Of a stretch of DNA of 64,000 nucleotides, positions 16,582-49,399 are shown in pieces (position 1 is the stretch's first letter; each line of letters opens with the position of its first letter). The notes under the pieces are model-generated. The model was not told where the DNA came from. It searched no databases and was given only the letters and a program-made list of their open reading frames with translations. Position numbers and translations under genes: made by a program. This DNA is from Psammoneis japonica. Its lineage: Eukaryota. The stretch is taken from assembly GCA_008632985.1 (NCBI GenBank), contig QPGO01000030.1, positions 310,001-374,000 of the forward strand, read 5' to 3'.

Positions 16582-18223
16582 TCAACGGCGTTTTTCCTTT
16601 GCTTTACTGTAGGCTGCCTCGGCTTCCTTTCTTGACGGTACAAGGTTGCTCAACCTCCAAGCGGCCGTAAGCCATAGCAGGGATGCTCCGCTTGTGAGGA
16701 AAGACAATTGTTGCAAGCCAAAGTCACCAAAGAACGAGGTGAGAGCCCACAAACCGAGAGACATGGTCGATTTTCCGAATCGGTATCCAAACACGCCAAT
16801 CACCTCTTTTCCGACTGTATCGACATAAGAATAGAGTGAACGATTGAGATGATTTTCTTTAGCAGGTGTAACTCCACCAAAGATTTTTGTACTCACCGTA
16901 TCTTGATTCGAAATCGAGCGGCACATAAACCATCTCATCTAGCATTCGTCGAGCAGAGTACTCCAACGCTTTCATTGCTAGCAAAGATCCACTCACAATG
17001 TAGAGAGTTGGATCTGACTGAAGTGATTGAAAGGTTGTGCAACATATTATGATTAATGGTAGCACTCTCCAAAGTGTTCTTGGCTCAATTACCGTCATCA
17101 GAGGAGGCAGAACAGTGAATTGGAGAGTCATGCTAATGACATTGATCAACGCAAAGAACTTCCCCATCCATCCAGCTCTCTCGGTGTCATTCGGTATTGA
17201 TGAGCTAAGCTTGGTGACAAAGCACACGTTGAGTAACGTTGCCAGTCCCTGAGAAGCTAATATCTCCCTAAAGAGGGCCCCAAGCTGTGGTACACGTTGG
17301 AAGAGCTGTGACGCTTTCTTCACCATGCCTACCTCTTCCTCGGACAATACCCCCTTTGCCTTCTTTCCATTGGTATTCTTCTTCTTGGCGTGTTCATCAG
17401 CAGGGTTGAATCCGTGTCGTTCGGCGATGGAATAAGATGCATTTGCAGCCAATAGACTGAGCAATAGCATCACGCCTGTGCCAAAAAGAGAGCCTGGAAG
17501 TCCCACTTTGTCGACCAGCGTGGAAACGCACAAACCAGCCACGGCACTTGTGATGGACGTCAAGCCAGAGATTGGCGCGAACCATACAGCACTCTGAGAG
17601 GGAGTCAATACAGATGCAATAAAAGACCAGTATTGACTGGTAAGGAGTGCAACGTAGCTCTCCCGAAAGACGAATAAGGGTCCCACAATGTACTTGACAA
17701 GCGGTACAGAGAAAAGCGAGGCATCAGACCCCTCAAGCGATGCGATAACGAAAGCAGCCAAACACAAAACTGAGGCACACATTGCGGTTGTTCGTGTCAA
17801 TGCCCCACGAGGGCCGTATCGATCAAGAACTTTTCCGTATCCCATCAACAGTACAAGAGCAGTAGGAGAAACAAATGCCATGGCCAACGGGAACGCAGCC
17901 GGTGATCCGGCGTATCCTGTCTTTTCCGACGTGAAAAGTGCAAGCGTTGTGGGTCGGGCAAATGAGTATCCCAGATAATGCAACGCCATGGCGAGTGCCA
18001 TGTAGAGAACGGATCTTGCCTCGTTGGACATTCCAAATATTCCTTCACACTCGGGAGACTCGCCACCTGCAACTTGAAGCGCACTGTCGGTGGAAGTAAG
18101 CACTGCAGCTGCCATTGACGACGCAGCAACAGCCGCCGCACCGCCTCTCCCCACCTGAAGAACATTTTTCAAGGCGTACATGGATGGACCGTGTCCGGAA
18201 GACACCAGAGACGCAAACACCAT
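16582..18223 (-). CDS. MFS transporter of the TLC ATP/ADP (NTT-like) family (intron ~16815-16896)
   Basis: About 12 hydrophobic segments, SQYWSFIASV, and LEYSARRMLDEMVYVPLDFESRY|VGKEVIGVFGYRFGKS, the typical TLC C-terminal motif. Confidence 0.8.
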
Positions 18224-18509
18224 GGCTCCGTCTCACCTTCTGCTTTCTTGTGATGGGATGTGTGATGTTCAATGTGATGTGTGATGTTCAGTGTGATTTT
18301 GGATTTTTGATGGCCATTGTTTGATGTCGCATACGTCACCCGATCCTCATGCACGAAGATTTGCAATAAAAGATCCAAAATGGCGCGCGTTGTTCACGTG
18401 CGCTTCTTCACCAGTGCAAGTAAGTCTGCCGGATGCGGCATGTATGTACTCCGAAGTGCTGCAAGCTTCTCTGCTTCTGTACCTGCTACTTCTAGAGCCC
18501 TTGGGGCGC

Positions 18510-18843
18510 GTTTTCTGTTCAGTGTTCGATCGCTTCCTCATCCTTTGTGGCAAGAGATACTTCCTTTCTGGAACTGATGTTCTCCAGAACCATGCGAGAT
18601 TTTGGGTGATGTGACCAGCACAAACAGCCGGCCGCTGCTCGATCAGGTGTTCCCGTGATGAACATTTTCCTTTTTTTGTGGCCAAAAAGACACAATTTTG
18701 TGGTTGGCTTTCTTTTAACTGAAAATGGAAAAGCCATGTGGTGATTGTCAGCAGCCAGCACTGTCTCCACCAGCTTTCAGCTGCTGCTGTGCTCCACACA
18801 CAAAGCGGAGAGACAGCTGTGTGAGCACCAACAACAAAGATCC
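18510..18843 (+). repeat. Dispersed ~330 bp repeat, copy A (partly hypermutated)
   Basis: Aligns to 23212-23531. Shared core tcctttgtggcaagagatacttcctttctggaac; both give the minus-strand peptide VPERKYLLPQR. Confidence 0.85.
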
Positions 18844-20330
18844 TTGCATCTCACATCTGCTTCATTCTGTTGCCTGGCACTGGCAGGTGCATTCTTGAGT
18901 GACAAAGACATGGTGTGTCCAGTTCTTCAAATGTGTCAGAAGAGGGCCACAGTGTCTTGAGCAGATGCTGCCTGCATTCGGCATGATCTTGCAACAAAGC
19001 AAGCCAGGAAAAAAGCCACAAAGAACGCTGTGCTGGAAACAGTCAAGGCCAAACAAGCCAAGTTTGGGTCTGAACAAATGCCTTGCAGATTCATCCCAGG
19101 TCTGGCACTTGGATGCAACATCGTCAAGGCTCGTGACACATGCGCAACACACTTGAAAAAGAGAACAAGATTCTGGCACAACTGAGTGACTTTTGTGGGA
19201 AGCATCCAACCTGACATTGCCTCCACCTGCCTTGGCAACCCACCAGGTTCTTCAAAAAGGAGAGACAAAGAAGGAGGTCAACCCAGGGGACAACTGAGTC
19301 ACTTTCACTTTCGCCGGAAGCATCTGACCAGACATTGCCTCCACCTGCCATGATGACCCCATCAGCAACTTCAGAAAGGAGGAAGAAAGGAGGCAGACCC
19401 AAGCAAGGGGGAACCCAGCACCTCCATGGTTGTCAAGAAAATGCAAGCCAATGTTGCTGCCACCCACATGCTTGTGCATCTGCTCAAGAGCCAGTGTGGA
19501 CACAGCCATGAGAGACCAAGGTTGCAGGATGAAACAGTCAACTTCCCCATGGCACCATCAAAGAAACAATTGTGAAAGCAAAAGCAAAGTGTTCTCTTGG
19601 GGAGGACATCACCTTGTCAGCTTCTCTTGTCACAAAATGTGCAGGCCACAAAAACGCAAATCCGAGAGGTGTGCATTCTCCGATGGCTCTCCTCCTCCAA
19701 CGGATTTTGGTCACACATTTGATGGCACTGCAGTGCACCAAGTCACCATCACAGCAAAAAGAGCTCCTTGAGGCCACCAACTCAATGATCAAAGGATCAC
19801 CCACTTGAAAAAAAGGTTGTTGAGTGGAGATGCTGCAACTGCGGTTGGGGGGGGGGGGGGGGGGGGGCACCAGATGATGAAAACAATCTCACAGCAAGCA
19901 AAGAGCAAAGCTGGGGCCCAAGCCTCTTGCAAGAGCTTTGTGAAAAGGCACAAGGATGAGCCAGGAGCAACATTTCCAAAAGGGTTTGATGCCAACAGGC
20001 AGAAGTGGACAACTTGCTGCAACACTGAGTTCACATGCATGAAGAGAAGTCCATGCGAGCGGCCGCACACGACCTCCTGCAGACATGCAGAGGAGCCACA
20101 GCAGAAAAGCTTGACAAGCCCAAGTTCGGAGATGTCAAAAGAAAAGAGTTGCATCCAAAGCTGAGGTGCATGGCCTTGTGACCCAATGCAAGATGATGAG
20201 CGGCCATTGCTCCACTTGCGTGGACGAGACTGGAAACAATGCCAGCCAGAAAGACGGGGGTGCAACTCATCGAAACATCAAGTGTTTGTGGAGAAGAAGG
20301 GCTCTGCGCACTGCTGCCCATGAGACTGCG
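18600..20330. mobile_element. TpA-free, CpG-reduced repeat-derived island 1 (decayed element, family unknown)
   Basis: One TA in ~1.7 kb by manual scan. Internal ~55 bp duplication (~19176-19232 vs ~19290-19350) and a poly-G tract at ~19847-19867. Confidence 0.65.
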
Positions 20331-20625
20331 ATTACAACGGACGCTCGCTGGACGACAATGGGAGTCAAGAATTCGTTTTAGGAGAGCTTTTGCTGTGCGT
20401 GATTATCATGCAAGCGGGCAAGGAGGACTTCCACATCATGAGCGAGCGATGGCGATCGAGCGAGCATTCGATTTGGTGTCGTCTGTCGTCGGTCCCACAC
20501 TCCACCCACTCCACCGAAATAAATGATGCGATCTTGATTGCGATTTTGAAATTGCGATCGATTGATTGATTGTTGTCAAACTCGCGACGTGACACTGTCG
20601 ATTAATCCGGCAATGAACTGCAAGG

Positions 20626-22590
20626 ATGACGGAATCTCCTCCAAAGAAGATACCCAAACGCATCGTCGAACTGAACGTTGGCGGCCAAGTGTTTACAACG
20701 TCTCGAGAGACTCTCCTGCACAGTTCGAGTTCGTATTTTCGCCGCATCTTGGAAGCTAATGATGAAGAGGGCCCGTCACTACCCGGCGCCATGTGTGACA
20801 AAGAGGGTCGTCTGTTTATCGACCGCGATCCCAAGCTCTTTGAATTGGTCATGGAGTACCTCCGCACATCCCACTTTCATCCGGAAGGTCTCTTGGATCG
20901 TGAAAGGAAGAATCTTTTTCACGAAGCACAATATTATGATCTCGAAGGTTTGGTGGAAATCCTGCGTCCGCCCGGTACGGGGTACGATCCGCGATTTCTC
21001 TCCGACGAGGATCAAAAGATCCGCCATGAGGCCGAACGTGCGCGGGAAGGTCTGCTTATTGGTGATGGTGGAGGCGTGAAAGCTGCGGACGGCCTTTTGA
21101 TTGACTTGTTTCCTCCCGAGAAGGAACCTGTCATTACGGACCTCATTCAAGCGCCTCCTACGTCACCAGATTCGGCATTTTTGTTCGACAAGCACGTGGA
21201 AACGGCACGAGAACTCGTGACATTTATTCCGCCGGAGAATCCACAAGAGTTCAAGCGCCGTCTCGAGAATTTTGGAGGTCCTCTGCTCAAGAACTTTCCC
21301 ATGGAGAATATTGTGATTGCGGGAGGTGCTGTGCTCAAATGTTTGCTCAGCGATCCACCAAGCAACGAAGGCATAATAGCGAAAAGCAGTCGGGCCGACA
21401 TTGATATTTTCCTCGTCGCGAATTCTCCGGAGAAGGGCCGAGAAGTCTTTGACAGGATCGTACAGCACCTCTCGTCCTCGTTTCGGAGAAGAGAGACGAT
21501 TGAACACAATCAGTTACTTGTCGTCCGATCACCCTTTGCAATTACCTTTTGCGTCGGGTATCCGCAGCGACATATTCAGTTGATCCTGACACGTTTCCAG
21601 TGTGTCGCTGACGTCATTCTAAATTTTGACATTGACTGCTGCCAAGTTGCGTGGGATGGTGACCGTGTCGTAGCCACGCCGTCTGCATTGCGAGCATTGA
21701 AGACCGGTATCAATATTGCCGATCCGGAACGTTCGACGTCTGGGGAATACGAGCATCGGTTGGCCAAGTATGCCGACAAAGGATTCTTGGTAGCAGTTCC
21801 TGGCCTGGAAGTTGCCAAAGTCAACGACGATTTAATTCGTAATTGCTGCTACGGCTACCGTGATGGTGACATGAAGAAGGTCAACCTTACGTTTATTGAA
21901 GGAAAGGATAATCCCACTTTCGCGGTTGAACCGGAACCAATTCGAGGACTTTCCAAGTTGATTGCTCTCTCCACTTGTTTTCGGTTTTCCTTTCAGAAAA
22001 ACCCCAATGTTGATGATCATGATATGATGAGAGAGCCGCCCCGAAATATGCAGGATGGAGAAATAAGATGGAAAGGTAATTTGAGAGATGGATCGATTGG
22101 TACTGGCAACTACCTTTTGCATTTGTCAAAAATGCAACCTGTGGATGGAGAGAAGCAGCCGGGGGTTTGGAAGAAGCAGACACCTCCATTTCCTCCGCCA
22201 GCTTTTTTGTTGGCCTTCGATTACTCATTTGCGAGATATGTTGATACGGTGGGAAACGAAATTCTACCTTGGCAGAAAGCACCAGCAGAGATGTTTCAAT
22301 TGCTGAATAAAGGAGAAAGTACGGGTATGAATAATTGGGGTACCGGCGCAGTCACTGATGATACCGACCAAAAACGGCTTGTTTGTTACGACTATCTGCC
22401 AAATGTTCGTCAGTCGACAGATTGTCCGAATGTTCTAGACGCCAAGAATCAATTCACCACCTATCCGTTTCTCACCAGACCTGGGCGACTCTCCCGGTTT
22501 CTCGAGTTTCCAACTTCGACGGACCGGGAATCTCACCCCTGGACTCCCTTCAATCAGGAAACATGGACGAGTGGTGTCTACAAGTCGTAA
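20626..22590 (+). CDS. Intronless BTB/POZ (KCTD-type T1) domain fused to a Pol-beta-superfamily nucleotidyltransferase-like domain
   Basis: IVELNVGGQVFTTSRETL...FIDRDPKLFELVMEYLR (KCTD BTB). IAGGAV...ADIDIF...IQLI...FDIDCC...RLAKYADKGF (NTase-like). Confidence 0.8.
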   Translation: MTESPPKKIPKRIVELNVGGQVFTTSRETLLHSSSSYFRRILEANDEEGPSLPGAMCDKEGRLFIDRDPKLFELVMEYLRTSHFHPEGLLDRERKNLFHEAQYYDLEGLVEILRPPGTGYDPRFLSDEDQKIRHEAERAREGLLIGDGGGVKAADGLLIDLFPPEKEPVITDLIQAPPTSPDSAFLFDKHVETARELVTFIPPENPQEFKRRLENFGGPLLKNFPMENIVIAGGAVLKCLLSDPPSNEGIIAKSSRADIDIFLVANSPEKGREVFDRIVQHLSSSFRRRETIEHNQLLVVRSPFAITFCVGYPQRHIQLILTRFQCVADVILNFDIDCCQVAWDGDRVVATPSALRALKTGINIADPERSTSGEYEHRLAKYADKGFLVAVPGLEVAKVNDDLIRNCCYGYRDGDMKKVNLTFIEGKDNPTFAVEPEPIRGLSKLIALSTCFRFSFQKNPNVDDHDMMREPPRNMQDGEIRWKGNLRDGSIGTGNYLLHLSKMQPVDGEKQPGVWKKQTPPFPPPAFLLAFDYSFARYVDTVGNEILPWQKAPAEMFQLLNKGESTGMNNWGTGAVTDDTDQKRLVCYDYLPNVRQSTDCPNVLDAKNQFTTYPFLTRPGRLSRFLEFPTSTDRESHPWTPFNQETWTSGVYKS

Positions 22591-23211
22591 GGAGTAGACG
22601 ACTCAGTACGAATAGCAATTAATTCATGTTTATGCGTAACAGCAAGCATGCTACAGGACTGAGCGTCTTGCGCGACAACCAGTAACGACTGCTAAAACGG
22701 ACACGGATCATCGTCTGTTTTGGAGTGGCACGATCGCGGAGAAGCGAAACTTGGTACTCATGACGCCGATGCTGCGTTCGAGGTCGGTATCCCCGTGCTG
22801 GCTGGTCTTCTTCAATAGCCGACGAGGATCCAAAGGAGGCATTGACGAGAAATTACTGCCCAATACGAGCTCTACTTTTGTGGCGCCAGACAAGGATGTG
22901 ACTGCGACGCTCCTGTTGTTGAGGCAATGAAACCGACACCACAAACCTCACTCGGGCAAGCAGCAAACGTGTTTTGGGTCATCAAAGAAGGCAAACAACA
23001 TGGCTGTAAGTTGCTTGGCTCTCGGTGTACTTCCTTGTTGCAACGATGTCACCGTGCTTTGAGCATGTCCCCGATGTATGACGTGAGGAGCAAAAAGTGA
23101 ACGAAGGACCTTGATTCGCAGCATTTCAGCCACTGTTCGCATCCCCCTGACTGACGATGCCGCACTCTCCAGTTATTGCGCACCAAGTTACACCTTGAGA
23201 TTCGCCACGTT

Positions 23212-23531
23212 ATTATTTGTTCAGTTTTCGGTCGCTTCTTCGTCCTTTGTGGCAAGAGATACTTCCTTTCTGGAACCAATGTTCTCTTCTAGGAGCAAGC
23301 GAGAGTTTGCGTGATATGGTGATCGCGCAATGTGGTGGTCACGCCATGAACATTCTCCTTTTTGTGGCGCAAAGATCTACTCTACCTACTAGTACTTGTA
23401 ATCGCTTTTCTTTTAACAGAGTGAAAAACATCATTTAGTGACTGCCCGTAGTTAGCACTGCCTACAGCTTTAACCACTACATTTCAAATCCAGCAGAGAG
23501 ACGATTACGATTAGAAGCACCAACAAAGATC
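23212..23531 (+). repeat. Dispersed ~320 bp repeat, copy B (retains TA and CG)
   Basis: Same orientation as and homologous to 18510-18843. Confidence 0.85.
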
Positions 23532-29178: not shown

Positions 29179-29599
29179 CTTCTTGTTTAGCGACTTGCTC
29201 GTGCAATGAAGAAAAGATCGAATACGGGTATGAGCTAAATTCCACCGCTCACATCATCAGGGTGTCCCGAGATTGGCGTCCTGGTAACAAATCGGTATTA
29301 ATAACCCGCAGCGACTGCTCTGTCATTTAACGCAGTACCGGAAGTCGCCATTGCGTCTCCCAAAGGCAGGAGGCAAAAAAAATAAGCGGCATCAGCGACC
29401 GACGCGCGCGGTCGACGCATGGACTCACCACACGATGGAGAGTTGCATGTTGTGATACGAATGGACTGACCATCCAAATCACGACGGGGATCCCCTCACA
29501 GGATCGAAGATCAAGATGGAAGAAGCTCAACTTTCGTGGCCCCCAACTGTTCGAGAGACAAAATTTACCAAAAAGCTTCATCCCACGAAGAAAGAATTA

Positions 29600-32500
29600 G
29601 TTGTCACAATGAAGAATCACTGTTTTGCCCCACTTTTTTTTTGTGCACAACAGTGTGCTTTTCTTGTTTTTCTCTCTTCAGCTGGGCAAGCCAGCCAAGG
29701 ACAGTGGTGTGGCAGCAGGTGCAAATGTCTTCATCATGCTCCACTGCTGTTTGTGTCAGGCCTGAGTCCATCTGTTCTGCTGTCCATTTGGGACCTTTGA
29801 GTTTCCTGTGCCATTGTGATCCTTCAATGCGCGCTGACAGGTTTTCATCCTTTGCAGGCTGTGAGAGAAGGGTGTGTGTTTCACACAACAAGAAACAATG
29901 TCCCCATGCCAACAAACATGTCTGCCATTCTTTGGGTGCTGGTGATTGGTGAAAACAAGTGGGGGCAGAGACTGGCCCTCACATTTGCTGTGCCCCCCAT
30001 GTTTTTGAGCTGGTGGTGCTGAGATGATTGCCCGCCGTCCTGGGTCACACCTCATTTGCCCAGGAATTCTGCATGGGAGCCTTTGCAGCTGTTTGACAAG
30101 CTCAAGTTTCAGAAACACTTCCATGTTGTCACACAAGCTGCAAGCCTCCAGAAAGCATGGCAACTGGCAAGTGCCAAGAACACCCTTTGAGAATGGACAC
30201 ATTTTGATCAGACATGGCTGCCAGGACAAGAGAATCTGGGTCAGTTGCTTGTCACCCTTGTGTGATGAAATGACCAACATGCAAGGATTGTGAACAACAG
30301 GATGAGCTGGAGATGCACTTCACTGCCCTCATCTTTGCATCTTTGAGCCCAGATGTGGCAATGTCCATGTCATCTCAAAACAAAAAGCTTCCTCAAGAGA
30401 CTCCAGAATTGCACTTGCAAACATCCAGCATTGTCCCAATTTGTTGTTGGTCAGTTTAGAGAGTGCATTTCCAAGTCTGGATTGTGCACTGGTGGGCTCT
30501 TTGGTTTCTTTCATTTTTGCTTTGCACTCAACAATGTAGAAATCCCAACATTGTTTGGGGGGGGGGGGAGGTTCTGTGAGGGTCTTTCAAAGATGCTTTT
30601 GAAATGGTCTGCCAAGAACACCAGCCATTGACAGGACAGTCTTGACCTTGACACCACAAATCATCACACTGCAAGAAGAACACTGTGTTTCAAAAAGCAC
30701 AAGGCCATCTTTGGGAGATTGTGTGGCTGAGACAAGAGTGGGGCAAGGTTGCTGTTTCCTGTGACTTGGATTTGAGGAAACAAGAAATCAAAAGGCCCAC
30801 ATTTGCACCTGCCACCACAGCACTCATGGCAGCCAGCTTGTCATCAAGTCTGTTTTCTGCAGAATGAAGCACAAACTCAAACCCAGAAGAAGAGGAGTTG
30901 CCAGCAGGGTTGTTGAAGGTCCCATCTCCAAAATCCTGTCCAAGCCAGCAACAGCAGTGTTGCAGCAACAGAAGAAATGTTCAACATCCTTTGTGGAGTT
31001 CATTGTTTTGAGGCATGCCAGGGGGACATGTTTTCAATGTGGCATCTCTTCACCATGATTGCTTCTTTGGTCAATTTCAACCATGCAATTGGTTTTGTCA
31101 GTTTCAAAGACATCTCTGGGAATCTGTTTTGCAGGAGAGACTCCATTGGATCATTTTGTCATGACCCTGAAAAAGTCAGGTGAGCGGGTGCTTCACACAG
31201 ATCAACTCTGTGTGAGTGCCTCCATGATGACACTTTCCATGACATTGTGCTGGGACAATGTTTTTCTTGGTGCAAGCTTTTGACCAGGACAACTTCAGAA
31301 GCAGCTGTGCAATGCTTTTCACTTTGAGCCATGGAATGCAAGTGTGGTGCAACATGTGGCAGTGGCAAGAGGAAGGAGACAATTCATCCCATGCATGTGA
31401 AGTGCAGTTGTCAAAAGTGGCAAGCTCTGCATGGCATGAAACCTTCAGGACAGTGCACAAAGGCAGTGCCCTTTTCTTCTGATGGGGCAACATTTGAAGG
31501 AATCTCTACAATCAGGTGTGTGGTCGTGCACCACTCACCTTTGATGGGAAAACACAACCAAGGGAAACAATCAGTGACAACAATTTTGTGCATGTCAAAA
31601 GGAAAGAAATGCATGAAACCCCAACCCTTGGCTGCAGAGCAAAAACCCAAGGCACCCAACACTTTGAAATGACACCTTCAAGGGTGGCTGTCAAGTTCTT
31701 GTTTGACGCTTTGGCAAAAGCAACTGTGACACACCCCAGTGCTTGGGAAATGATCCCACACACTCTTGCAAGTTGGTTGAACAGGGGGGTTGGCACACAG
31801 AGTTGAGGCTGCCGCCGTCATTGCTGCAGAGGAAAGGCATTCTTCATGCCCTGCACTTGGGAGCCTTTGCAGCTGTTTGACAAGCTCAAGTTTCAGAAAC
31901 ACTTCCATGTTGTCACACAAGCCACAAGCCTCCAGAAGGCATGGCAACTGGCAAATGCTGAGAACACCCTTTGAGAATGGAGACATTTTGATCAGACATG
32001 GCAAGCCAAGAGAATCTGGGTCAGTTGTTGCTTGTCATGGTGTGATGAAACGAGCAACATGCAAGGATCAAGAACAACAGGATGAGCTGGAGATGCACCT
32101 TGCTGCCCTTGCCTTTGTGTCTTTGAGCCCAGATGTGGCAATTTCCATGTCATCTCAAAACAAAGAGCTTCCTCAAGAGACTCCAGAACTGCACTTGCAA
32201 AACATCTGGCATTGTTCCAATTTGTTGTTGGTCAGTTTTGAGAGTGCATTTCCAAGTCTGGATTGTGCATTGCCAGGCTCTGTGGTTTCTTCACTTTTTG
32301 CTTTTTGCTCAACAATGTAGAAATCCCAACATTGTTTGGGGGCTGGGGGGGAGGTTCTGTGAGGGTCTTTCAAAGATGCTTTTGAAATGGTCTGCCAAGA
32401 ACACCAGCCATTGACAGGACAGTCTTGACCTTGACACCACAAATCATCACATTGTGAGAAGAATGCTGTGTGTCAAAAAACACAAGGCCATCTTTGGGAG

Positions 32501-35500
32501 ATTGTGTGGCTGAGACATGAGTGGGGCAAGGTTGCTGTTTCCTGTGACTTAGATTTGAGGAAACAAGAAATCAAAAGGCCCACATTTGCACCTGCCACCA
32601 CAGCACTCATGGCAGCCAGCTTGTCATCAAGTCTGTTTTCTGCAAAATGAAGCACAAACTCAAACCCAGAAGAAGAGGAGTTGCCAGCAGGGTTGTTGAA
32701 GGTCCCATCTCCAAAATCCTGTCCAAGCCAGCAACAGTGGTGTTGCAGCAACAGAAGAAATGTCCAACATCCTTTGTGGAGTTTCGTTGTTTTGAGGCAT
32801 GCCAGGGGGGGCATGTTTTCAATGTGGCATCTCTTCACCATGATTGCTTCTTTGGTCAATTTCAACCATGCAATTGGTTTTGTCAGTTTCAAAGACATCT
32901 GGGAATCTGTTTTGCAGGAGAGACTCTGTTGGATCATTTTGTCATGTTGCCCTGAAAAAGCCAGGTGAGGGGGTGCTTCACACAGATCAACTCTGTGTGA
33001 GTGCCTCAATGATGGCACTTTCCATCATGACATTTTGCTGGGACAATGTCTTTCTTGCATGCTTGGCAAGGATGAAACATCAGAGTCGGCTGTGCAGCCA
33101 TTTTCACTTTGAGCCATGGACACACAAGTGTGGCACAACATGCAGCAGCAGTGACAAGAGGAAGGAACAATTTGTCCCATGATGCATGTGAAGTGCAGTT
33201 GTCAGAAGTGGCAACCTCTGCAGAGCATGAAGCCTTTGGGACAGTGCGCAAAGGTGGCACCCTCTTCTTCTGATGGGGCAACATTTGAAGGAATCTCTGC
33301 AATCAGGTGTGTGGTGGTGTGCTCACCTTTGGCAAGAAAAATGCAACAAAGGGAAACAGTCAAGGACAACAGCTCTCTGTGCATGTCAAAAGGAAAGAAA
33401 TCCAAACAACAACCCCCAGCCCTTTGCTGCAGATCAAGAATCCAAGGCACCACAACACTTTGAAAAGACACCTTCAAGGGTGGCTTTCAAGCTCTCCTTT
33501 GGTGCTTTGGCAAAAGTGTGTGTTGAGCTTGCCCCCCAATGTGAGAAGCAAAAGCCTGCTTTTGGCTCACAACAAAAACTGCAGAAGGCCCCATGTGCTG
33601 CCAAAACCTTTTACAAATCATGTTTTCTGCAGAATGAAGCACAAACTCAAACCCAGAAGAAGAGGAGTTGCCAGCAGGGTTGTTGTAGGTCCCATCTCCA
33701 AAATCCTGTCCAAGCCAGCAACAGTGGTGTTGCAGCAACAGAAGAAATGTCCAACATCCTTTGTGGAGTTTCGTTGTTTTGAGGCATGCCAGGGGGGGGA
33801 TGTTTTCAATGTGGCATCTCTTCACCATGATTGCTTCTTTGGTCAATTTCAACCATGCAATTGGTTTTGTCAGTTTCAAAGACATCTGGGAATCTGTTTT
33901 GCAGGAGAGACTCCATTGGATCATTTTGTCGTGACCCTGAAAAAGTCAGGTGAGCAGGTGCTTCACACAGATCAACTCTGTGTGAGTGCCTCCATGATGA
34001 CACTTTCCATGACATTGTGCTGGGACAATGTTTTTCTTGGTGCAAGCTTTTGACCAGGACAACTTCAGAAGCAGCTGTGCAATGCTTTTCACTTTGAGCC
34101 ATGAAATGCAAGTGTGGTGCAACATGTGGCAGCGGCAAGAGGAAGGAGACAATTCATCCCATGCATGTGAAGTGCAGTTGTCAAAAGTGGCAAGCTCCAC
34201 ATGGCATGAAACCTTCAGGACAGTGCACAAAGGCAGTGCCCTTTTCTTCTGATGGGGCAACACTTGAAGGAATCTTGGTGGCTGTCAAGTTCTTGTTTGA
34301 TGCTTTGGCAAAAGCAACTGTGACACACCCCAGTGCTTTGGAAATGATCCCACACACTCTTGCAAGTTGGTTGAACAAGGGGGTTGGCACACAGAGTTGA
34401 GGCTGCCGCTGTCATTGCCGCAGAGGAAAGGCATCATGGGGAAGTCACTTCTGCATGTGAACAAAACTGCAAAGAAATTCTTGGCACCTTGTTCATCCCT
34501 TTTTGGGGCATCCCAGATGGAGTTGTTGGCATGCTGCATTGGGAGCTTCTTCATGCCCTGCACTTGGGGGGGCCTTTGCAGCTGTTTGACAAGCTCAAGT
34601 TTCAGAAACACTTCCATGTTGTCACACAAGCCACAAGCCTCCAGAAGGCATGGCAACTGGCAAATGCTAAGAACACCCTTTGAGAATGGAGACATTTTGA
34701 TCAGACATGGCAAGCCAAGAGAATCTGGGTCAGTTGTTGCTTGTCATGGTGTGATGAAATGAGCAACATGCAAGGATTGTGAACAACAGGATGAGCTGGA
34801 GATGCACTTTGCTGCCCTCACCTTTGTGTCTTTGAGCCCAGATGTGGCAATTTCCATGTCATCTCAAAACAAAGAGCTTCCTCAAGAGACTCCAGAACTG
34901 CACTTGCAAAACATCTGGCATTGTTCCAATTTGTTGTTGGTCAGTTTTGAGAGTGCATTTCCAAGTCTGGATTGTGCATTGCCAGGCTCTGTGGTTTCCT
35001 TCACTTTTTGCTTTGTGCTCAACAATGTAGAAATCCCAACATTGTTTGGGGGCTGGGGGGGAGGTTCTGTGAGGGTCTTTCAAAGATGCTTTTGAAATGG
35101 TCTGCCAAGAACACCAGCCATTGACAGGACAGTCTTGACCTTGACACCACAAATCATCACATTGTGAGAAGAATGCTGTGTGTCAAAAAACACAAGGCCA
35201 TCTTTGGGAGATTGTGTTGCTGAGACAAGAGTGGGGTAAGGTTGCTGTTTCCTGTGACTTAGATTTGAGGAAACAAGAAATCAAAAGGCCCACATTTGCA
35301 CCTGCCACCACAGCACTCATGGCAGCCAGCTTGTCATCAAGTCTGTTTTCTGCAGAATGAAGCACAAACTCAAACCCAGAAGAAGAAGAGTTGCCAGCAG
35401 GGTTGTTGAAGGTCCCATCTCCAAAATCCTGTCCAAGCCAGCAACAGTGGTGTTGCAGCAACAGAAGAAATGTTCAACATCCTTTGTGAAGTGCTTTGTT

Positions 35501-38060
35501 TTGAGGCAAGCCGGGGGGGGGGCATGTTTTCAATGTGGCATCTCTTCACCATGATTGCTTCTTTGGTCAATTTCAACCATGCAATTGGTTTTGTCAGTTT
35601 CAAAGACATCTGGGAATCTGTTTTGCAGGAGAGACTCTGTTGGATCATTTTGTCATGTTGCCCTGAAAAAGCCAGGTGAGGGGGTGCTTCACACAGATCA
35701 ACTCTGTGTGAGTGCCTCAATGATGGCACTTTCCATCATGACATTTTGCTGGGACAATGTCTTTCTTGCATGCTTGGCAAGGATGAAACATCAGAGTTGG
35801 CTGTGCAGCCATTTTCACTTTGAGCCATGGACACACAAGTGTGGCACAACATGCAGCAGCAGTGACAAGAGGAAGGAACAATTTGTCCCATGATGCATGT
35901 GAAGTGCAGTTGTCAGAAGTGGCAACCTCTGCAGAGCATGAAGCCTTTGGGACAGTGCGCAAAGGTGGCACCCTCTTCTTCTGATGGGGCAACATTTGAA
36001 GGAATCTCTGCAATCAGGTGTGTGGTGGTGTGCTCACCTTTGGCAAGAAAAACACAACAAAGGGAAACAGTCAAGACAACAGCTCTCTGTGCATGTCAAA
36101 AGGAAAGAAATCCAAACAACAACCCCCAGCCCTTTGCTGCAGATCAAGAATCCAAGGCACCACAACACTTTGAAAAGACACCTTCAAGGGTGGCTTTCAA
36201 GCTCTCCTTTGGTGCTTCGCAAAAGTGTGTGTTGAGCTTGCCCCCCAATGTGAGAAGCAAAAGCCTGCTTTTGGCTCACAACAAAAACTGCAGAAGGCCC
36301 CATGTGCTGCCAAAACCTTTTACAAATCACCAGTGTGTCTCAACCATTCATGTCCTTGTTGGCAAAGATTTCTTTCTAGACCATCTCTGCAAATGTGCAA
36401 TCACAACAACACCAACATCAAGAAGGAGAGATTGAAACCAGCATCAATGAGAAAGTTTTTGTCCAACCTCAAATGTGATGACTTTGTTCAAAAGCTCATG
36501 CTCCACCAGTGTGTCAGTCATTCTGCCAGCACAGGCCATCTGCTTCTGGGCTTGCTCAATGGAGGCCACCAAACTGCTCACCTTCAACAAAGCCACTTGA
36601 CCAACACAGGGTTGCTCAATGTAGACAAGTCAATCACACAAAGGGCATGTTGCTGGGTGGAAGCTTTGGCAAGGGCCACAGTCTTGAATGACAGCATTTC
36701 ATTGCAACCCTCATGAAGTTGAAGACCTCCTGTGGCAAAAAAGATTGTGGGACTTTTCAGTGGAACAAGCAACAGCCTTAACTGGAGGGGTTGGTGGGAG
36801 GGACATTGTTGTTTGAAGGTGCTGTGCAGCTGTGTCTGTGCTGATGCCACTTCCACAGGGGGGTGAGCAGGGAGATTGTGGCCTGCACAGCAGCGTGCTG
36901 CTTGGCTGCCAATGTGACCACCTTTGCAACCCCCTTGATGTGTGCTCCAAAGGCCAGGCATGACAAAGTTGCAGCAGGGATGTGCAAAAACAGAGTCCCC
37001 TGTGCTTTGGTGATGTTGCAGATCAGTTTGAAAGGTGGCCGCTGGGTTGCAACAGTCTCCTCCTGTTCCAGTGCTCTGTGAGTGCACTGCACAAATTTCA
37101 CTCTTGACAACACTGCTTGAATGTCACAACAACCAAGATGTGGCTCTGCAACCTGAACACACATGCAAAATTAACCCAAGACAAAACAGCCACACAGCCC
37201 CTTTCAGCCAGGGCCCCTCAGCAACCCAGCCATGACTTCTGTTTGTGGCTGGGGTTGTTGGCTCTCATTGCAAAATGACAAGGAAGTCTCACACATGCAT
37301 TGATGCATTGACAAAAAGAACTTCTGAATCAACAAAAAAGAAGACAAAAGCAAAAACTGTGGGGTGCATTTGTTGAGTTGATGCACATGATGATTCAATG
37401 AACAAGATTCAAGCTGTGAAAACCCATGCCAACAAACACAAATCAAGGCAAAAGAAACTCAAAAACATGACACCAGATGACTCCTTCAAAGGCTGACCTG
37501 CTTGGCTCCAGGAAAATCAAATGGCACCATCGCTCAAAACAAAATGAGAGACAGACTTTGCCCCTGTGTGCTGAGGTTCTTGCACAAGTCTCCAACAAAG
37601 AGCTGGCTTTGATGCCTCTGGAAGCTGCACCTGCCACAGGCTCACACCTTTCAGCTCTGGCAATGTTGAAAGAATGAGGAGATGGCTGGCATGCAAAGTG
37701 GCAACATTGCTGGCAAAAGAACAGCAGCGGGTGTTGGCAGATGAGTGCGCACGTTTTTTTTTTTTTGCTCTTCTTGTGTGGGTGCACAGTGTGAGATGTT
37801 GAGTTGTTTTTTGAAGCTGCAGCCAAGGCATCTCTCTTGGCTTTTGCAAGTGAGCTTCTGGGGCACATGTTTGCAAAGATCCTGATGCTGCTGGGGCTGT
37901 GCTCGCACAAGTGGGGGTGCAGATCAGGCTGCTGTTTTTGAGCACGCGTGTTCATCCACAAACAGCAGCTGGCACTTCCCCCCCCCCCCCCCCAGCCCAA
38001 TGGCCCGATGCCGCAGTTGACACAGGTTGGGTTTCATTGTCGCCAACAACGTCATCGAGG
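29600..38060. mobile_element. TpA/CpG-depleted island 2: decayed element(s) with a nested tandem array
   Basis: Near absence of TA and CG with a TG/CA excess. All ORFs are short and almost Tyr-free. Poly-C at ~37978-37993. Confidence 0.7.
30075..36330 (+). repeat. Higher-order tandem duplication (A-B1-A-B2-B1-A-B2), main period ~2.7 kb
   Basis: Block A (cctttgcagctgtttgacaagctcaag) starts at ~30075, ~31859 and ~34570. Block B (gttttctgcaRaatgaagcacaaactc) starts at ~30852, ~32635, ~33622 and ~35344. 31859-33620 is near-identical to 34570-36330. Confidence 0.92.
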
Positions 38061-38399
38061 GAATGACAGCTAGCTAGCTAGCTAGAGCCACCACTGGCTA
38101 CTAGAGTAGAGAGCAGTTTTGGCTTGCGAAATTGAGTGCGTCGTCCGCTTGCGTGCACGCTTGTCCGAATTTTGCGCAATGTTGCGAAGCATCATCATCG
38201 CTCCATCAACTCGCTCTCGCACTCATCAACACGCCGCTGCTTTATTTCACCTTCAAACTTCACAGTCAAGCCAGAGACATGGCGAAGGATCGAAGCTGTG
38301 CCGATATTAATAAGAAGCTAGGCAATCAAGAAGAACGTAATATCAGGGGCGAAAGACATCGGGGTGGTAGAATCATCAAAACTACAGTAGGTCACAATC

Positions 38400-41721: not shown

Positions 41722-44700
41722 GATGATTGATATACCGGAGTAGTAAGACTAAGTCGATGCTTTGATCAAGTGGTCAACTTCGGAATTGTGAGAGGATCAG
41801 CGTGATTGATGTTTCGACGCTTGCTCGGATGGGATTGCTTCGACATACTAGACTTTTCGTACATTCTACGGACTAACGATTTATCGTCAAAACCATCCGT
41901 CAATCACGAAAGAATAGCGGGCGGGCAGGTTTTGTACACAAAAGGTGATAGTACAATGATCATACCATGCCCTACGCCGCTTGATGCGTAAGGCCAACAA
42001 ACGCTCATCAGACTTCATAAACACGCATTTTCGTAGCAGTCATATACAACGTTGAATGAGAAGATAACATTTTCTTGGTCATGGGAAGTGGGCGGAGGAA
42101 CTTCTTCTCACTGACTTTGAACTAACTACAACCCTCTGTTCCATCTTCAAGCCACTGTGCTGTTGTCCATCCCATTGTCTCTTGCAGCCTGTCTTACATC
42201 TTGGTGTTCTTGGCTGTGCTGTCATCACATTGTGCACTCCAGTCATTGTCATCATCAGAGGGGGAGGTCAATGCAGGCCCTGCATGGCTCCATTTGGTTT
42301 TCTTGCATTTGATGTGCACCAACCAAACACAATTTGATCAACCTCCATTGTTTTGATGGAGCCTCATTTGATTCCTGTGGCACCTGCAACAACCCAGCAG
42401 GAGCTGAAGCACGAGTTGCAGAGTTCCCAAATTTGGCATCATTCATCCTCTCCACAAATGATGTGGATTGCCCTCAACTCTCCAGCTCCTGCCATTTGCC
42501 CAAGGGCATTGCATGTGCACCATCTTTTCCAGCGATGCTGAGTTTTGCAGGATTTTTGTCTGCTCTTTTCTCCCACAATGCTCCAGCTTGACCAGGCTGC
42601 AACAAACAATTCAACTTGTGTCTTTCTTGCCACAATTTTTTGTTGCCATGTGTCGCCCCTCTGCTCTCCACACACTGGGTGCCAATTTGACCCTCCTCAT
42701 TTTGTGCATCTGATGAGTCTTGCACTGTTGAGCACCACAGTTTTGTGGCTCCTTCCATTTCATCATCAAGGGTGTGAGCCTTTGGTGTCTTTCTGGCTTG
42801 ATCTCTGGCAGAACAGCTGTTGATTTCACCTGCGACTTTTTTTGCCACACTCAAAGCACAAGCACAATGGCATCTTCCGTCAACCCAGGCAGGTGTGCCA
42901 GAGATTGGCTGGCCATCAAGTCTTCTCCTTGTTGCACTCTTTTTTGTTGTGCACAGCTTCACAAAAGATTGTGAAGTGAGTTGACGATTGCATGCCAGTG
43001 CATTTTCAAGAATGACTGGCGCACAAAGTGTTGCTTGTGATGCTGGCATGGCACAACACTCACAGGCTGCCTTTTTTTTGTCTGTGTTCAGACAAGGCAA
43101 GGAAACACCATGAAAAAGTCAAGGCTCAAGAGATGAAAAGCAGAGTGCAAGTTGACAAAAAGCCCAAACCAAGGAGCACCAGGGGGCTGTCTCTGCATTC
43201 TGCCACAAGACCAAGGTTGGCATCAATCTTTGGACATCTGACACTTGTGAGGATTTGTGACAGCAGCTTTTTTTGCTTTGTGCAAAGCAAAGAAGTCTCA
43301 CACAGCAAGAAAGTTTCTAACAGCAGACTCAGACTCATGGTTGGTTGAGTCTCAGGATCCTTCTTCTCTGTGCATGCAGTCAATGCCGTCATTGACAATT
43401 TTTTTCAGTCACTTGCTGGCGCACTCTCTGGAGAGCTGCCAGTGAAGTCAAGTGATGACTTTGTACAGCCTGCTGCACAGGTCATGTCTTGCAACATCCA
43501 ATTTGAAAGCCAGGGCATGATGATGCCAAGATTCATCAACAGACAAAGGGGGCTTGTCTGCTCCTGTGGGACAGATCATTTTGTGTGTCTCAGCACGCCT
43601 GTGAGCAACTCATTGCACACCATCAAAGTGCAGCTCACCAGCAGACAACCAATCACAAGGCTGAAAAGCTTTGCTTGAATGACTTGCCAAGATTTTTCAG
43701 CTGCCTTGGCTGAGACTGAAGCTTCTGATGCACTTGAAAGCTGGGGAGCATTGTCGCTGTGGAGTGTGAATTGTTGTGCCATCCACTTCGCAACTTGTGC
43801 AACCCAGAACTCATGTTGTCAATTGCAGCTGCAGCACCACCATTTGCACAACAACCAATTGATGGCAGAGCTGCTGGACATTGACACAACTTGTGCCAGT
43901 GACTTTGTTGCATCATTGTGCTGTTGTTGGTGATTTCCAAAAATGTGCTGACTTCTCGATGCTGCAAGAGGCAGGCAGGAGCGACATTTTGTGCTGCCAA
44001 GAAAACAAGCTTTCTTTTGTTGTTTCTTGTTCAAAACACTGTCAACAACTCCATTGTGTGCAGCCAAGCAGTGTGAAGCCAAGGTTTCTGGAATCAGTTG
44101 TGGAGCAAGATGAGCAATCAAATGAGTCACCGCATCATGCACCAATGGTTTGCAATGAGCCCACGCTTTGGAAAGGGGGCTGGCAAAAGAAAAGAGTTGC
44201 CTGAGCATCTTGTTTGTCTCATCTGCACTTTGTGGCCCAGACAAGCAATGCAGCCAGTTTCCAAGAGAGCACGGGGAGTGCCAATGGCAACACTGCCGCA
44301 GTTTCAAGATGCCAGGAGCTGGAAGCAAAATGACAGGCACACCACCAACAAAACCATTTTGGCTCCACAAAGATGATCAGCAACAAATGCTGCTGCAGCA
44401 TTGCTTCAAATGATGGGGCAACCTGCACACTAATTTGCAAACATGTGGGGAGCCAATGGCAAAAATGCTGCAGTTCCAAGACGACCATCAACAGAGCAAA
44501 CCTGAAAATTAATTTGCCAGCAAAGTGCTCAAAACTTGAGCCAGTCATCTTCATCAAACCACACAGAGACCACAGCACACATGCTTTGATTTTGTGTCCT
44601 TGGCAAGCCACACTTGCTTGTTGTGTGACCTGTCTTGGAGCAGCTTTGGCGCAGCTGTGCTGGCACAACTTTTTCAGAGGCTTGCACTTGTTCTCTTCTG

Positions 44701-44819
44701 CTGGCTTCCTTTTCACATGTTTTTTTGCTTCTTTGTGCTGCTGCTTTGTTTCTCTGCATGTTTCTGACTGCATGTGCACTGTGCTCAAAGAACAAGCACA
44801 AACAAAAAAGGAGTTCCCC

Positions 44820-45085
44820 CAATGGCCCAAAGCTTTTGCACTGCTTCTGTGGAGCAAACGCCTTGCGGAGAATCAGATCATGACAACAGATTGTCTGGAT
44901 GTGATCAACATTGACATCTTGTGTGTTGTCATCATCTTCCAATTGCATTTGCAGTTTTTGACATCTGACCACAGCTGTGTGATTGATCTGTCCTTTGCAC
45001 GCATCCACAATTGTGGTGCAATTGATGACACACATGACAATGTGTGATCACAAACATGCACAATTCCACGCAATTCCTTCTGCTT
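44820..45085. repeat. LTR-like direct repeat, copy 1
   Basis: 44821-44901 matches 47837-47918, and 44895-45085 matches 48957-49137. The two copies bracket the gypsy coding relic. Confidence 0.7.
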
Positions 45086-45099
45086 CACAGTGCATGCTG

Positions 45100-47775
45100 C
45101 ACTCACCTCCCCAATTGCACATTAGATTCACTTGTCAAACAGCACATTTTGGAACTCCCCAAGAGTTTCTGCAATGGACAGCAGCTCTTTTTCCATTGTG
45201 GTGCATCACATCTGCACTCCATTTGGCTCTTGGCTGTGGAAGGCAACAGGTTGTTTGTCTTGGGATGTGACCTCACCCAGTTGAGAATTGCTTGCTTCTG
45301 TGTGCATTTCAAAGGGTTTGTTGAATCTTGGTGTGACAACAACACATTTTTTGATGTGATTTGCTTCAGATTTTCAAAGGCTTTTTGTTCTGTGCTTGTC
45401 CATTGCCACTTGACCTTGGTTGAGGTGAGTCTGGTCAGGCAAGTGTGTGAGATTGTCAAGGCCACATGTCTCAACAACAGCTGATCGTGCCAACAAAACA
45501 CTGGAATTCCTCATGTGAGTCTTGGGAGCAGCAAACAATTGAATTGCTTCCACTTTCTCAGGGGTCAGTTTGGTGCCTTTTTGCAAGATGTGAAACCCAA
45601 GATGGCCTGCTTTGGGTTTTGCAAAAAAGGATTTTTTGGCATTGACTTTTGAGCTGGCTTGTTCAAGCCATGTGAATGTGGTTTTGAGCTTCTGGAGGTG
45701 ATCTTTGAAGTCAACACCTTTTGTCAGACATGGTGTGTTGTCAACACACATCCTGACAAATTCTGAGCCTGCCATGAGCTCACTCTCGTGTGTTTTTAAA
45801 AATCATGTGGAGCTCCACAATTCCCGTGGGGGGCTGCAGCACTCAAATTTGCCGCAAGGCATCATTGCTGTGCACAGCCAATGCACGTGTGCGGTGTTGG
45901 CTTGACGTGGCAGCACCCCATGTTCAAATCAAGTGACATTGCATGCATGAAGCCCTTGAGCTTCTGCAGCATGTCGCGAACATTGAGCAGGGGATGTGGA
46001 GCATGCATTGACCTCCAACTCAACTCACAAAAGTTGGGTGAAAATCAAACTCCACCATTTTTCTTGGGTTGAAGAAAGGTTGGAGCTGCCCACTCTGAGT
46101 GGTTTGTTTTTCTTGAGACTCTCAGTTCACAAAGTCTTTTGCCTTTCTTTCTGGTGGCTGCCTGATCAACTGGCTTTCCAGCCCATGTGCCTGAAGAGCT
46201 GTTGAAAAGATTTTCAAATCTTTTTGGAAGAACAAAGTTCAGTTGCTTCTGCTCCTACGGAATGAGGTGAGTTGCTGCTGCAGTCACATTGCTGATGTTG
46301 GCAGCATGACAGTCAGCATCAAGGATCCTGGGTGTTGACCCTGTCATTGAGACACTTTCCATGGCACAAGATTCCTCAATGTGATTGGCAATCAGCTTGA
46401 AGACCTCAGCATCAAAGAAAACATCCACACACTCTTCATTGGTGCAGTTGCATCTTCCCATTTAATTCCTTCATTTGCGATGTTGAGCATGACTCCAAGA
46501 CTGCTCATCAAGTTTTGCCCCATGATCACATCATGTTGACATGAAGAAAAGAAGGAATGCTGCCACATGTGCCATCTTCTCAATCATTTCATGCTTGTCC
46601 AATTCAGGCAATGAGAACTGCACCCTGCATTTGCCATTGGTTGTAAAGAGCCCTCCCTTGGTTTCCCAAGTTTTGGTGGCAGATTCTTCAGTTCTCATTT
46701 TTGGCGTGAATTTGCACAAAATTGTGGTTGATGACATTCTGCTGTCAAGAAGAACACCCAGAGCAATGATTGCTGGACTGGCATCAGTTGTTTTGGCCCT
46801 TTTTTTTTGGGCTTCCTGACATCCAGTGATGTTCTTGACCACTTGTCAACAGGTGCCAGTCATTCCTTGGATTTGCTGCGTGTCATCCTGTCAAGTTGGC
46901 AGTTTTCTTCACTGAGATTGTCAGCACCAGAATCTTCACCCTGGCGCTTTCTGTCACTCTTCAACAAAGTTGCCTTGAGAGTTTCATTGATTGTCTGAGC
47001 AATCATGGTGTTCAACTCTTCCTTGTGAGAGGTGTTTCTATTGTCATGGCATGACCACGTGCAATTGTGCCATTTGAATGTTGTCATTTTGGGCTCTGCT
47101 CAGAATTCTCAAGGCATTCCTTCAGCTGGTCTTTTGGTGAAAAGGAGGACAGAACTTGCATTCTTCATTGACCTCCTGAGTCCATGCAGTGTTTTCTTGA
47201 ATCTTTGCTCACTCTGGTTTCTTAAGATCATCCCAGTGCAGATGTGGCTTCTGGTTTTGAAGTGCATTCTTTGGGAAGACATGGTTTGAGAGATGATGCA
47301 GACATTTTTTGAAAGATCCTTTGGCTTCTTTGTCATCCATGTTTGTCACCTTGTTTCTCAAAAATTCAAAGAGTGTCTCCCTGCAACAACATGTGCACAA
47401 GCCAGAGCTCATCAGCTTGCTTGTGAATTTTCTGTCCAACCAAGACTTGGTGACATGTTTTGAGGATTTCAGTGCACTTGGGGACACTCCTTGTTTGTTG
47501 CAGTGCTCAACATTGACCATGCAGGCATGACTCTTCTTGTCCTTGGGGTGAAAGCACTGTTCGATCTTGAGGCACTGACTTGGTTTGAGCATCTTTGGCT
47601 TGGAAATTGACTCCAATGGCACAGGAACAATCTTCTCCTGCTTGATGATGGAAGACTTGTTGGCTGCAACATGAGGTGAAAGCTTCATTTTTGTGTTTTT
47701 ACCTTCTGCAGTGTGTGTGCACAATGCACTGTGCACAAGAAATGAGTGCAAACAAAAGTGGAATGGATCGCACAA
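45100..47775 (-). pseudogene. Ty3/gypsy LTR retrotransposon gag-protease-RT-RNase H relic (integrase not seen)
   Basis: Protease VLLDSRMSSTTI...WETKGGLFTTNGKCRVQFSLPEL and HDVIMGQNLMSSLG. RT FVRMCVDNTPCLT...KVNAKKSFFAKPKAGHLGFHI (decayed YIDD...YLG). Linker WQWTSTEQKAFENLK and RNase H start LLSHQDSTNP. Confidence 0.88.
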
Positions 47776-47836
47776 AGTGGAAAATCATGAGATTAGATTT
47801 TATTCTGAGATTTGAAGTTTCTCCAAATGAGCTGTC

Positions 47837-49140: not shown

Positions 49141-49399
49141 CACATGCTGCAGCACATGTGCTCTCAGGGACTCTGTGCTCTTGTCACTTGTGGTCACATT
49201 GCTCCTCCACAACACATCATCTGAACTCCACACTCTTGCAAACCCAGCTCCAAACAAGGGGCTCCAATGCGCTCATTTGTTGGTGGGTTGGATTTTGAAA
49301 GCACATCTGTGCCAACTCCAATTTCCCACAGCTGTGAACAACTGTCTGATTTAGCCACTGCCCCCTGTGAACACTTTTTGACATTGCTTCATGATGGCT

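Follow-up and report, generated by a model that had tools for sequence, protein, structure and literature searches.

We analysed 64,000 nt of the diatom Psammoneis japonica (contig QPGO01000030.1, positions 310,001–374,000, forward strand; this whole stretch is called the window, and all coordinates below are counted from its first base). Two diverged copies of a repeat, A and B, lie 4.7 kb apart in the window, and they raise a question: why does A have TG or CA at sites where B has TA, and why does this difference start inside the repeat? We argue that most of A lies in one of three sharply bounded tracts in which the dinucleotides TA and CG are nearly gone, and that these tracts probably (about three chances in four) result from region-targeted hypermutation of TpA to TpG or CpA, together with CpG decay, acting in place on silent repeats. 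The two copies, and the run that they share, are as follows.

18505..18845, no strand, repeat copy A; its left 54 nt are unmutated, and the part from 18559 rightward belongs to the TA-free tract 1
23207..23531, no strand, repeat copy B; unmutated, with 20 TA and 14 CG, between the convergent BTB-domain gene and radical-SAM gene
18541..18574 (equal to 23243..23276), no strand, 34-nt run identical in A and B; it contains the retained TA at 18558

Comparison of the two repeat copies

The alignment of A and B has 359 columns, of which 229 match, 53 differ by a transition, 27 differ by a transversion and 50 contain a gap, and scores 27 standard deviations above alignments of shuffled sequences; the flanks are at chance level (z-scores of −0.7 and 0.2), also when transitions are forgiven. 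Among the 15 TA dinucleotides of B that are aligned without gaps, two are kept in A, five appear as TG, four as CA and four as something else, and both TA of A face a TA in B. The asymmetry is 9:0 (binomial P = 0.0039) in our custom alignment and also 9:0 with MAFFT, so the excess of TA in B over TG or CA in A that a preliminary description of this locus had proposed is present. The examples quoted there are correct as well (TA > TG at 18740/23437; TA > CA at 18752 and 18756; TA > TG at 18702 with CG > TG at 18705; TA > TG at 18611). For CG, five of the 13 aligned dinucleotides of B are kept, five are TG or CA in A and three are something else; A has nine CG, two of which face CA in B. A/T sites outside TpA change no more often than G/C sites outside CpG (19/118 versus 14/90).

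The identity of A and B is 81.5% outside the tract and 72.5% inside, and the latter rises to 77.6% when the 13 signature sites are restored. The pair is an old duplication, because these signature changes make up only 13 of the 70 in-tract mismatches and the identity is 81.5% even to the left of the border.

We found no third copy in the window by exact seeds, purine/pyrimidine 28-mers or two-letter BLAST (the last is very noisy, and A/B is its sole long match between an island and normal DNA), and a 25-nt pattern of the A/B core has no match in metagenome contigs. Rfam and tRNA scans of the window returned nothing, which rules out the pair as a known RNA gene or a tRNA-derived short interspersed nuclear element.

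Three tracts nearly without TA and CG

A 1-kb dinucleotide profile of the window reveals three sharply bounded tracts where TA and CG are nearly gone, TG and CA are raised and GC is 47–50%. Their approximate borders were placed where TA and CG cease and resume their regular occurrence:

18559..20332, no strand, tract 1; one TA in 1774 nt
29599..38070, no strand, tract 2; 16 TA and 30 CG in 8.4 kb
42196..51290, no strand, tract 3; 24 TA and 62 CG in 9.1 kb

The tract cores (18,863 nt) contain 41 TA, for which about 730 would be expected at the background frequency, a deficit far beyond chance, and 105 CG. The observed/expected ratios (o/e) are 0.03 for TA, 0.10 for CG, 1.91 for CA and 1.75 for TG, versus 0.58, 1.01, 1.15 and 1.11, respectively, in the background (43,897 nt). 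The total of pyrimidine–purine steps is equal (0.2352 in the tracts and 0.2384 in the background): TA+CG drops by 0.090 (from 0.0974 to 0.0077) and TG+CA rises by 0.086 (from 0.1410 to 0.2274), with GC at 47.0% in the tracts and 48.1% in the background. A loss of TA+CG that is matched by a gain of TG+CA is just what a transition-only conversion of TA and CG to TG or CA predicts. An in silico conversion applied to background DNA, at 97% for TA and 90% for CG, reproduced the tract profile with r = 0.98 (simulated versus tract values: CA 1.88 versus 1.91, TG 1.84 versus 1.75, GC 46.6 versus 47.0%).

The contents of the tracts differ. Tract 2 is built of direct repeat units of 1.78/2.7 kb (30074–36330) with a mutual identity of 95–99%; the units are this similar and yet all fully converted, so they have been multiplied or homogenised after conversion. 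Tract 3 contains a retrotransposon relic (see below). For tract 1, we found no long match to other parts of the window, even with transitions ignored, and no protein family (Pfam, read-through in six frames). Neither tract 1 nor tract 2 has a transposon or viral gene that can be recognised (tract 2 was checked by its open reading frames (ORFs) and by tblastn with pol proteins), and a Pfam search with 65 tract ORFs of at least 100 a.a. gave only a weak RNase H match. All three tracts end before the flanking genes, on both sides, and the residual TA and CG within them do not co-cluster.

Many overlapping ORFs of 100–250 a.a. occur on both strands in 29400–38100 and 42000–51500, because TAA and TAG are not possible in the tracts. 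We rejected the possibility that the tracts are mutated copies of genes in the window, as 167 ORFs from outside the tracts, compared with them by tblastn, gave a single match, at chance level. Two homopolymers were also observed: a 21-nt G run (19847–19867) near the right end of tract 1, where read contigs break, and a 16-nt C run (37978–37993) close to the right end of tract 2; the two were listed as a pair of inverted repeats.

Direction of change

The preliminary description had taken TA as ancestral on the strength of the pair. The pair alone gives no polarity: there is no outgroup, and a change of CA or TG to TA in B, as in classical repeat-induced point mutation (RIP), could equally have occurred. 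The ancestral state of TA is supported instead by the composition of A, by the tyrosines of the relic in tract 3 and by the mass balance given above, so that this part of the earlier view stands and the claim that the pair itself gives the direction does not.

As for composition, the in-tract part of A has one TA in 287 nt, which is below all 834 background windows (minimum two), and copy B, with its 20 TA, is in the top 6.8% of background windows but within their range; A, not B, is therefore the compositional outlier. The normal counts of TA and CG in B support the earlier claim that only one copy has been hit.

The relic in tract 3 gives the second line of evidence:

45137..46839, minus strand, broken Ty3/gypsy-type pol relic; protease, reverse transcriptase (RT) and RNase H with no integrase part, interrupted by frameshifts and TGA stops

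Read through with X at stops, it matches RT_RNaseH_2 (E-value = 1.4e-11); it has 467 relatives at E-value ≤0.001, and tblastn E-values go down to 2.9e-45. The relic has no tyrosine codon. The 26 tyrosines of an intact relative (P0244) correspond in the relic to cysteine (six), histidine (six), phenylalanine (five) or other residues (nine), and never to tyrosine. The 53 arginines of the same relative face arginine (11), lysine (nine), glutamine (four), cysteine (three), histidine (three), stop (two), tryptophan (one) or other residues (20), and three further relatives (P0243, P0255 and P0263) give the same pattern. For example, LDLNMGYYH has become LDLNMGCCH, DFRELN has become NFCELS, and VRF reads V-stop-F. 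Tyr > Cys/His and Arg > His/Cys/Gln/stop are the protein-level equivalents of TAY > TGY/CAY and CGN > TGN/CAN, i.e. exactly the changes proposed here.

Relatives of the relic in other data were also compared. Among the 150 best RT-family representatives, 10 are free of tyrosine and have 7–12% Cys+His, versus ∼3.5–4.5% Tyr in intact ones, and a second homology search (with P0278 and P0393) added a further tyrosine-free RT relative on another contig. The relatives with 0% tyrosine and raised Cys+His are P0251, P0258, P0262, P0272, P0278, P0281, P0288, P0318, P0319, P0325 and P0393; they probably come from other genomes or copies that are hypermutated in this way. As tyrosine-free relatives come from other assemblies, the same end state is also present elsewhere in public data. 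Relatives of the RT in metagenomes (79 distinct loci of 557 confirmed) all have a TA o/e of at least 0.59, with a median of 0.75; this ranking of loci favours intact copies, so the frequency of mutated copies cannot be read from it. Four intact-looking loci in this set (L007, L032, L006 and L070) have a CG o/e of 0.12–0.20 (0.12 for L007) and a TA o/e of 0.62–0.92, a composition that we read as CpG decay without TpA loss in other hosts.

Sequence fragments adjoining the truncated end of the relic occur again 3 and 4 kb away, with 82–83% identity (44820–45025, 47836–47928 and 48954–49088), which makes tract 3 a nested or rearranged pile of element pieces.

A mutational border, both strands and two components

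The left edge of tract 1 falls inside the repeat, as the preliminary description had noticed from the TA that A keeps in gagaTAc at 18558. For TA this border is defined within 27 nt, since the first converted site is at 18585; CG persists in copy A to 18654. The homology of A and B is unbroken across this edge and their flanks are unrelated, so the edge is a mutational border and not an insertion junction. Tract 1 takes in about two thirds of A and continues through 1.5 kb of DNA unrelated to B, and B is spared. These observations support targeting by region, not by pairing, for the A/B pair, in agreement with the earlier view; regional targeting explains why A is changed only from 18559 rightward and why B, in normal intergenic or untranslated-region DNA, is untouched.

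Both outcomes of conversion are mixed at a fine scale. Along A, the converted TA sites read CA, TG, CA, TG, TG, CA, CA, TG, TG, and TG and CA are interspersed in all three tracts (runs-test z-scores of −0.45, −0.6 and −2.0, with −2.5 and −0.7 in the background); the runs tests found no strand-coherent mutation runs in the three tracts.

The losses of TA and CG do not have the same extent. The CG-poor core of tract 1 is narrower (18655–20055, 13 CG) than the tract, whose margins (18559–18654 and 20056–20332) have no TA and keep CG. In the right margin (20056–20332) there are 0 TA (13.3 expected) and 12 CG (20.1 expected), and none of 1672 background windows of 277 nt is without TA. Two other margins, 18559–18654 and 37904–38070, are likewise TA-free with CG kept, so the TA-free zone is wider than the CG-poor zone at three edges. 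Over tract 1 as a whole TA is at ∼1% of expectation and CG at ∼15%. The TA-only margins, together with the CG-poor, TA-normal metagenomic relatives, indicate that the CpG and TpA losses are separable, though their targets are shared here; two processes with a common target region probably underlie the TpA and the CpG component.

Proposed mechanism and alternatives

We propose that certain silent repeat or foreign stretches of nuclear DNA in this diatom have undergone, in place, a context-specific hypermutation that makes only transitions. TpA would become TpG or CpA (A > G on either strand) and CpG would become TpG or CpA (C > T on either strand), with conversion running nearly to exhaustion. 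Targeting would be by region, with sharp borders (for TA, <30 nt at the left end of tract 1) that do not have to match the ends of repeats. The natural substrate of the ADAT2/TadA family is an A preceded by U. An ADAT2/TadA-like enzyme, of the kind proposed for the chlorarachniophyte Bigelowiella natans, could account for the TpA component by enzymatic deamination of adenine on DNA; the CpG component may come from deamination of 5-methylcytosine in CpG-methylated repeats, and a silent chromatin state might be the guide common to both.

Several points weigh against this reading. The asymmetry of CG between A and B (5 versus 2, P = 0.45) is not significant in this pair taken alone, so that for the pair the pattern of the preliminary description is significant in its TA part only. 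Most differences between A and B are ordinary divergence (27 transversions, 50 gap columns and 22 A/T transitions outside TpA). No outgroup copy of A/B was found, so the direction is indirect for the pair. The description as repeat or foreign DNA is established only for tract 3 and, in the form of tandem repeats, for tract 2. None of the differences between the window and read contigs (see below) is at TA, and nothing therefore shows that the TpA process is active today. Finally, CpG goes without mention in the main text of the preprint on B. natans (10.64898/2026.01.13.699255; its supplements may differ), and the CpG loss is equally strong here.

Repeats are evidently among the targets, as tract 2 consists of long direct repeats and tract 3 includes the retrotransposon relic, and RIP in Neurospora is known to leak into flanking unique DNA. 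It could thus be imagined that a repeated element in tract 1, with copies elsewhere, triggered a RIP-like, pairing-dependent mutation that spilled over some hundred bases into A (A/B itself, at 330 nt and 78% identity, would have been too short and diverged to count as a pair). We consider this unlikely: the comparison of tract 1 with the rest of the window found no long partner even with transitions ignored, tract 1 is in one read contig at single-copy word depth, all three tracts have edges that lie clear of the neighbouring genes on either side, as suits a domain better than leakage, and the chemistry is unlike RIP, with TA lost and not gained.

The RT/RNase H relic in tract 3, and the 5′ U preference of ADAR-type enzymes (as cited in 10.64898/2026.01.13.699255), would suit a change at the RNA level, i.e. 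UA editing of retroelement RNA by an ADAR-like enzyme, followed by reverse transcription and insertion, so that the tracts arrived already changed. This is very unlikely, given that the edge of tract 1 lies within a contiguous non-transposon repeat that has an unchanged partner, that CG is lost too, that tract 2 has no homology to retroelements, and that TG and CA are equally common and interspersed, where a single complementary DNA (cDNA) strand would give one outcome.

Still less probable is an intrinsic composition, with the tracts as satellite or foreign DNA free of TA and CG from the start (e.g. from a donor avoiding them), a view to which the sharp borders and the lack of recognisable genes in tracts 1 and 2 would be congenial: A is homologous across the border to B, which has normal composition, the pol relic lacks tyrosine codons and is broken up by many stops and frameshifts, the 79 metagenomic RT relatives have normal TA (o/e at least 0.59, median 0.75), and the pyrimidine–purine mass balance points to conversion.

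The letters themselves can be compared with contigs from a public DNA run, which may be from the source sample. They reproduce 18545–19832 with two other letters and one gap, and bridge the right edge of tract 1 (19881–23272) and the left edge of tract 2 (23247–30103), with a word depth over the bridged edges equal to that of the flanks; they break at the 34-nt core shared by A and B and at the run of 21 G. Out of seven single-letter differences between the window and these contigs, three are CG versus TG or CA inside the tracts (19133, 20086 and 31814). The least probable explanation is that bases modified in heterochromatin (5-methylcytosine, modified T or A) were miscalled in sequencing or assembly: the changes do sit exactly at dinucleotides that bear DNA modifications in many protists, but this run gives the same letters over tract 1 and the tract edges, the relic also has indels and a truncation, A and B differ by many other changes, and the tyrosine-free RT relatives (10/150) come from other assemblies.

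Genes and transcripts in the window

The window is nuclear DNA of a polar-centric diatom, with ordinary nuclear genes in long ORFs outside the tracts. They include genes for Mg-chelatase subunit H, the mitochondrial ATP synthase gamma subunit (86% identity to transcripts of the polar-centric diatoms Ditylum, Helicotheca and Odontella), a BTB protein, a radical-SAM enzyme and NPR2. Two features adjoin tract 1:

16859..18232, minus strand, ORF of 457 a.a. without a Pfam family; left flank of tract 1, composition normal
20617..22590, plus strand, BTB/POZ-domain gene; between copies A and B, composition normal

The radical-SAM (HemN-like) gene, on the minus strand, has a 74-nt intron (24350–24423) with GT..AG ends, which is skipped by a contig of run X2; this spliced joint suggests that run X2 is an RNA library, though not recorded as such. 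Run X2 covers the flanking genes and has no contig over 18334–20334 or 29673–36999, a lack of coverage that is no evidence of silence. The gene encoding Mg-chelatase H (55727–59250, plus strand) is split over two overlapping frames (55727–57967 and 57871–59250), by either an intron or a frameshift.

Comparison with known systems

RIP of ascomycete fungi resembles the process proposed here in being transition-only and dinucleotide-specific, in destroying repeats and transposons and in leaving compositional islands. RIP changes C to T mainly at CpA, creates TpA and AT-rich DNA, and mutates the two members of a duplication alike. In the tracts, TpA is lost (o/e of 0.03 versus 0.58) with GC nearly unchanged (47.0 versus 48.1%), and one partner is hit: the 20 TA and 14 CG of B are in the background range and A has one TA in its in-tract part. 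Classical RIP is thus rejected on two of its defining traits, the creation of TpA and the mutation of both copies.

ADAR and APOBEC enzymes offer another likeness, namely deaminase-type, context-dependent, clustered transitions against selfish nucleic acids. Their substrates are RNA or single-stranded cDNA, and the changes that they make form strand-coherent runs. The tracts differ from this in that both strands of chromosomal DNA are changed equally and at a fine scale, with runs tests like those of the background, and in that the changed unit is not an inserted element, as the edge of tract 1 is within the homology of A and B, a non-mobile repeat.

The CpG component resembles the CpG decay of methylated transposable elements (TEs), in which the change is likewise limited to silent repeats: CG has gone to TG or CA (CG o/e of 0.10, and Arg > His/Cys/Gln/stop in the relic). 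Ordinary methylation decay leaves a CG o/e of ∼0.2 in vertebrates, and the values in the tracts (0.04–0.1) are far below this. Such decay also explains only half of the signature, and the TA-free margins that keep CG speak for a separate process. Diatom TEs are known to be CpG-methylated (PMC9998398 and PMC11842555), e.g. at 84% in TEs versus 24.9% in genes in the centric diatom Thalassiosira rotula (PMC11842555). DNMT4, a relative of fungal RID/Masc1, is reported in 23 centric and eight pennate species among 60 diatom species (PMC9998398). CpG methylation of TEs, or DNMT4, could drive the CpG component; DNMT4 is a candidate for enzyme-driven C > T, and nothing ties it to adenine changes.

The closest system is that of B. 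natans (Mettrop et al., 10.64898/2026.01.13.699255). In mutation-accumulation lines of this alga, two integrated viral regions gained 231 mutations, of which 230 were A > G/T > C, all of these at TpA, at a rate of ∼6e-7 per site per generation and roughly 1000-fold above that of the genome; its genome has 124 clusters that are poor in TpA, rich in CpA+TpG and enriched in RT and DDE domains, and an ADAT2 homologue was proposed as the deaminase (10.64898/2026.01.13.699255). The two cases share a change of A > G/T > C only at TpA, giving TpG or CpA, in discrete regions and towards GC, i.e. against the usual mutation bias. The same restriction to TpA is seen here in the 9:0 asymmetry of A/B, the Tyr > Cys/His changes of the relic, the mass balance and the simulation, and the discrete regions are the three tracts, including tract 3 with its Ty3/gypsy pol relic and tract 2 with its tandem repeats. 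The hosts differ, a rhizarian alga there and a diatom here. According to the preprint (10.64898/2026.01.13.699255), the depletion in B. natans is partial (Rho TpA of 0.45 in a giant-virus insert) with a measured rate, whereas here it is near total (0.03) and known from sequence alone. As CpG is not mentioned in the main text on B. natans, the double depletion of TpA and CpG has no precedent there.

We found no report of TpA-depleted tracts in diatoms in the literature within reach (subscription journals and preprint supplements were outside it). The B. natans preprint (10.64898/2026.01.13.699255) gives the one earlier description of a hypermutation of invading DNA that is specific to TpA and directed towards GC; the present case adds a new lineage and the CpG component, and the A/B pair adds that a tract border is a mutational border inside otherwise continuous DNA. 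It is conceivable, though we hold it to be rather doubtful, that an ancient defence by region-guided DNA editing is common to chlorarachniophytes and diatoms. It would deaminate adenine to erase TpA and cytosine to erase CpG, the two self-complementary pyrimidine–purine steps, on both strands of silenced foreign or repeat DNA, possibly through a single deaminase system of the ADAT2/TadA kind that acts on both A and C, and its borders would be set by chromatin, not by homology.

The signature also has practical consequences. Tracts without TAA and TAG stops or tyrosine codons produce long false ORFs on both strands and tyrosine-free database ‘proteins’, and TA- and CG-free tracts hide transposons from homology searches. 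Diatoms are genetically tractable, so that, if the reading is right, direct tests could be made of the enzyme, of what guides it (chromatin or small RNA) and of the link to CpG methylation. If a diatom truly has the same signature as B. natans, the process is not a curiosity of one lineage and may be a widespread algal counterpart of RIP with a different chemistry.

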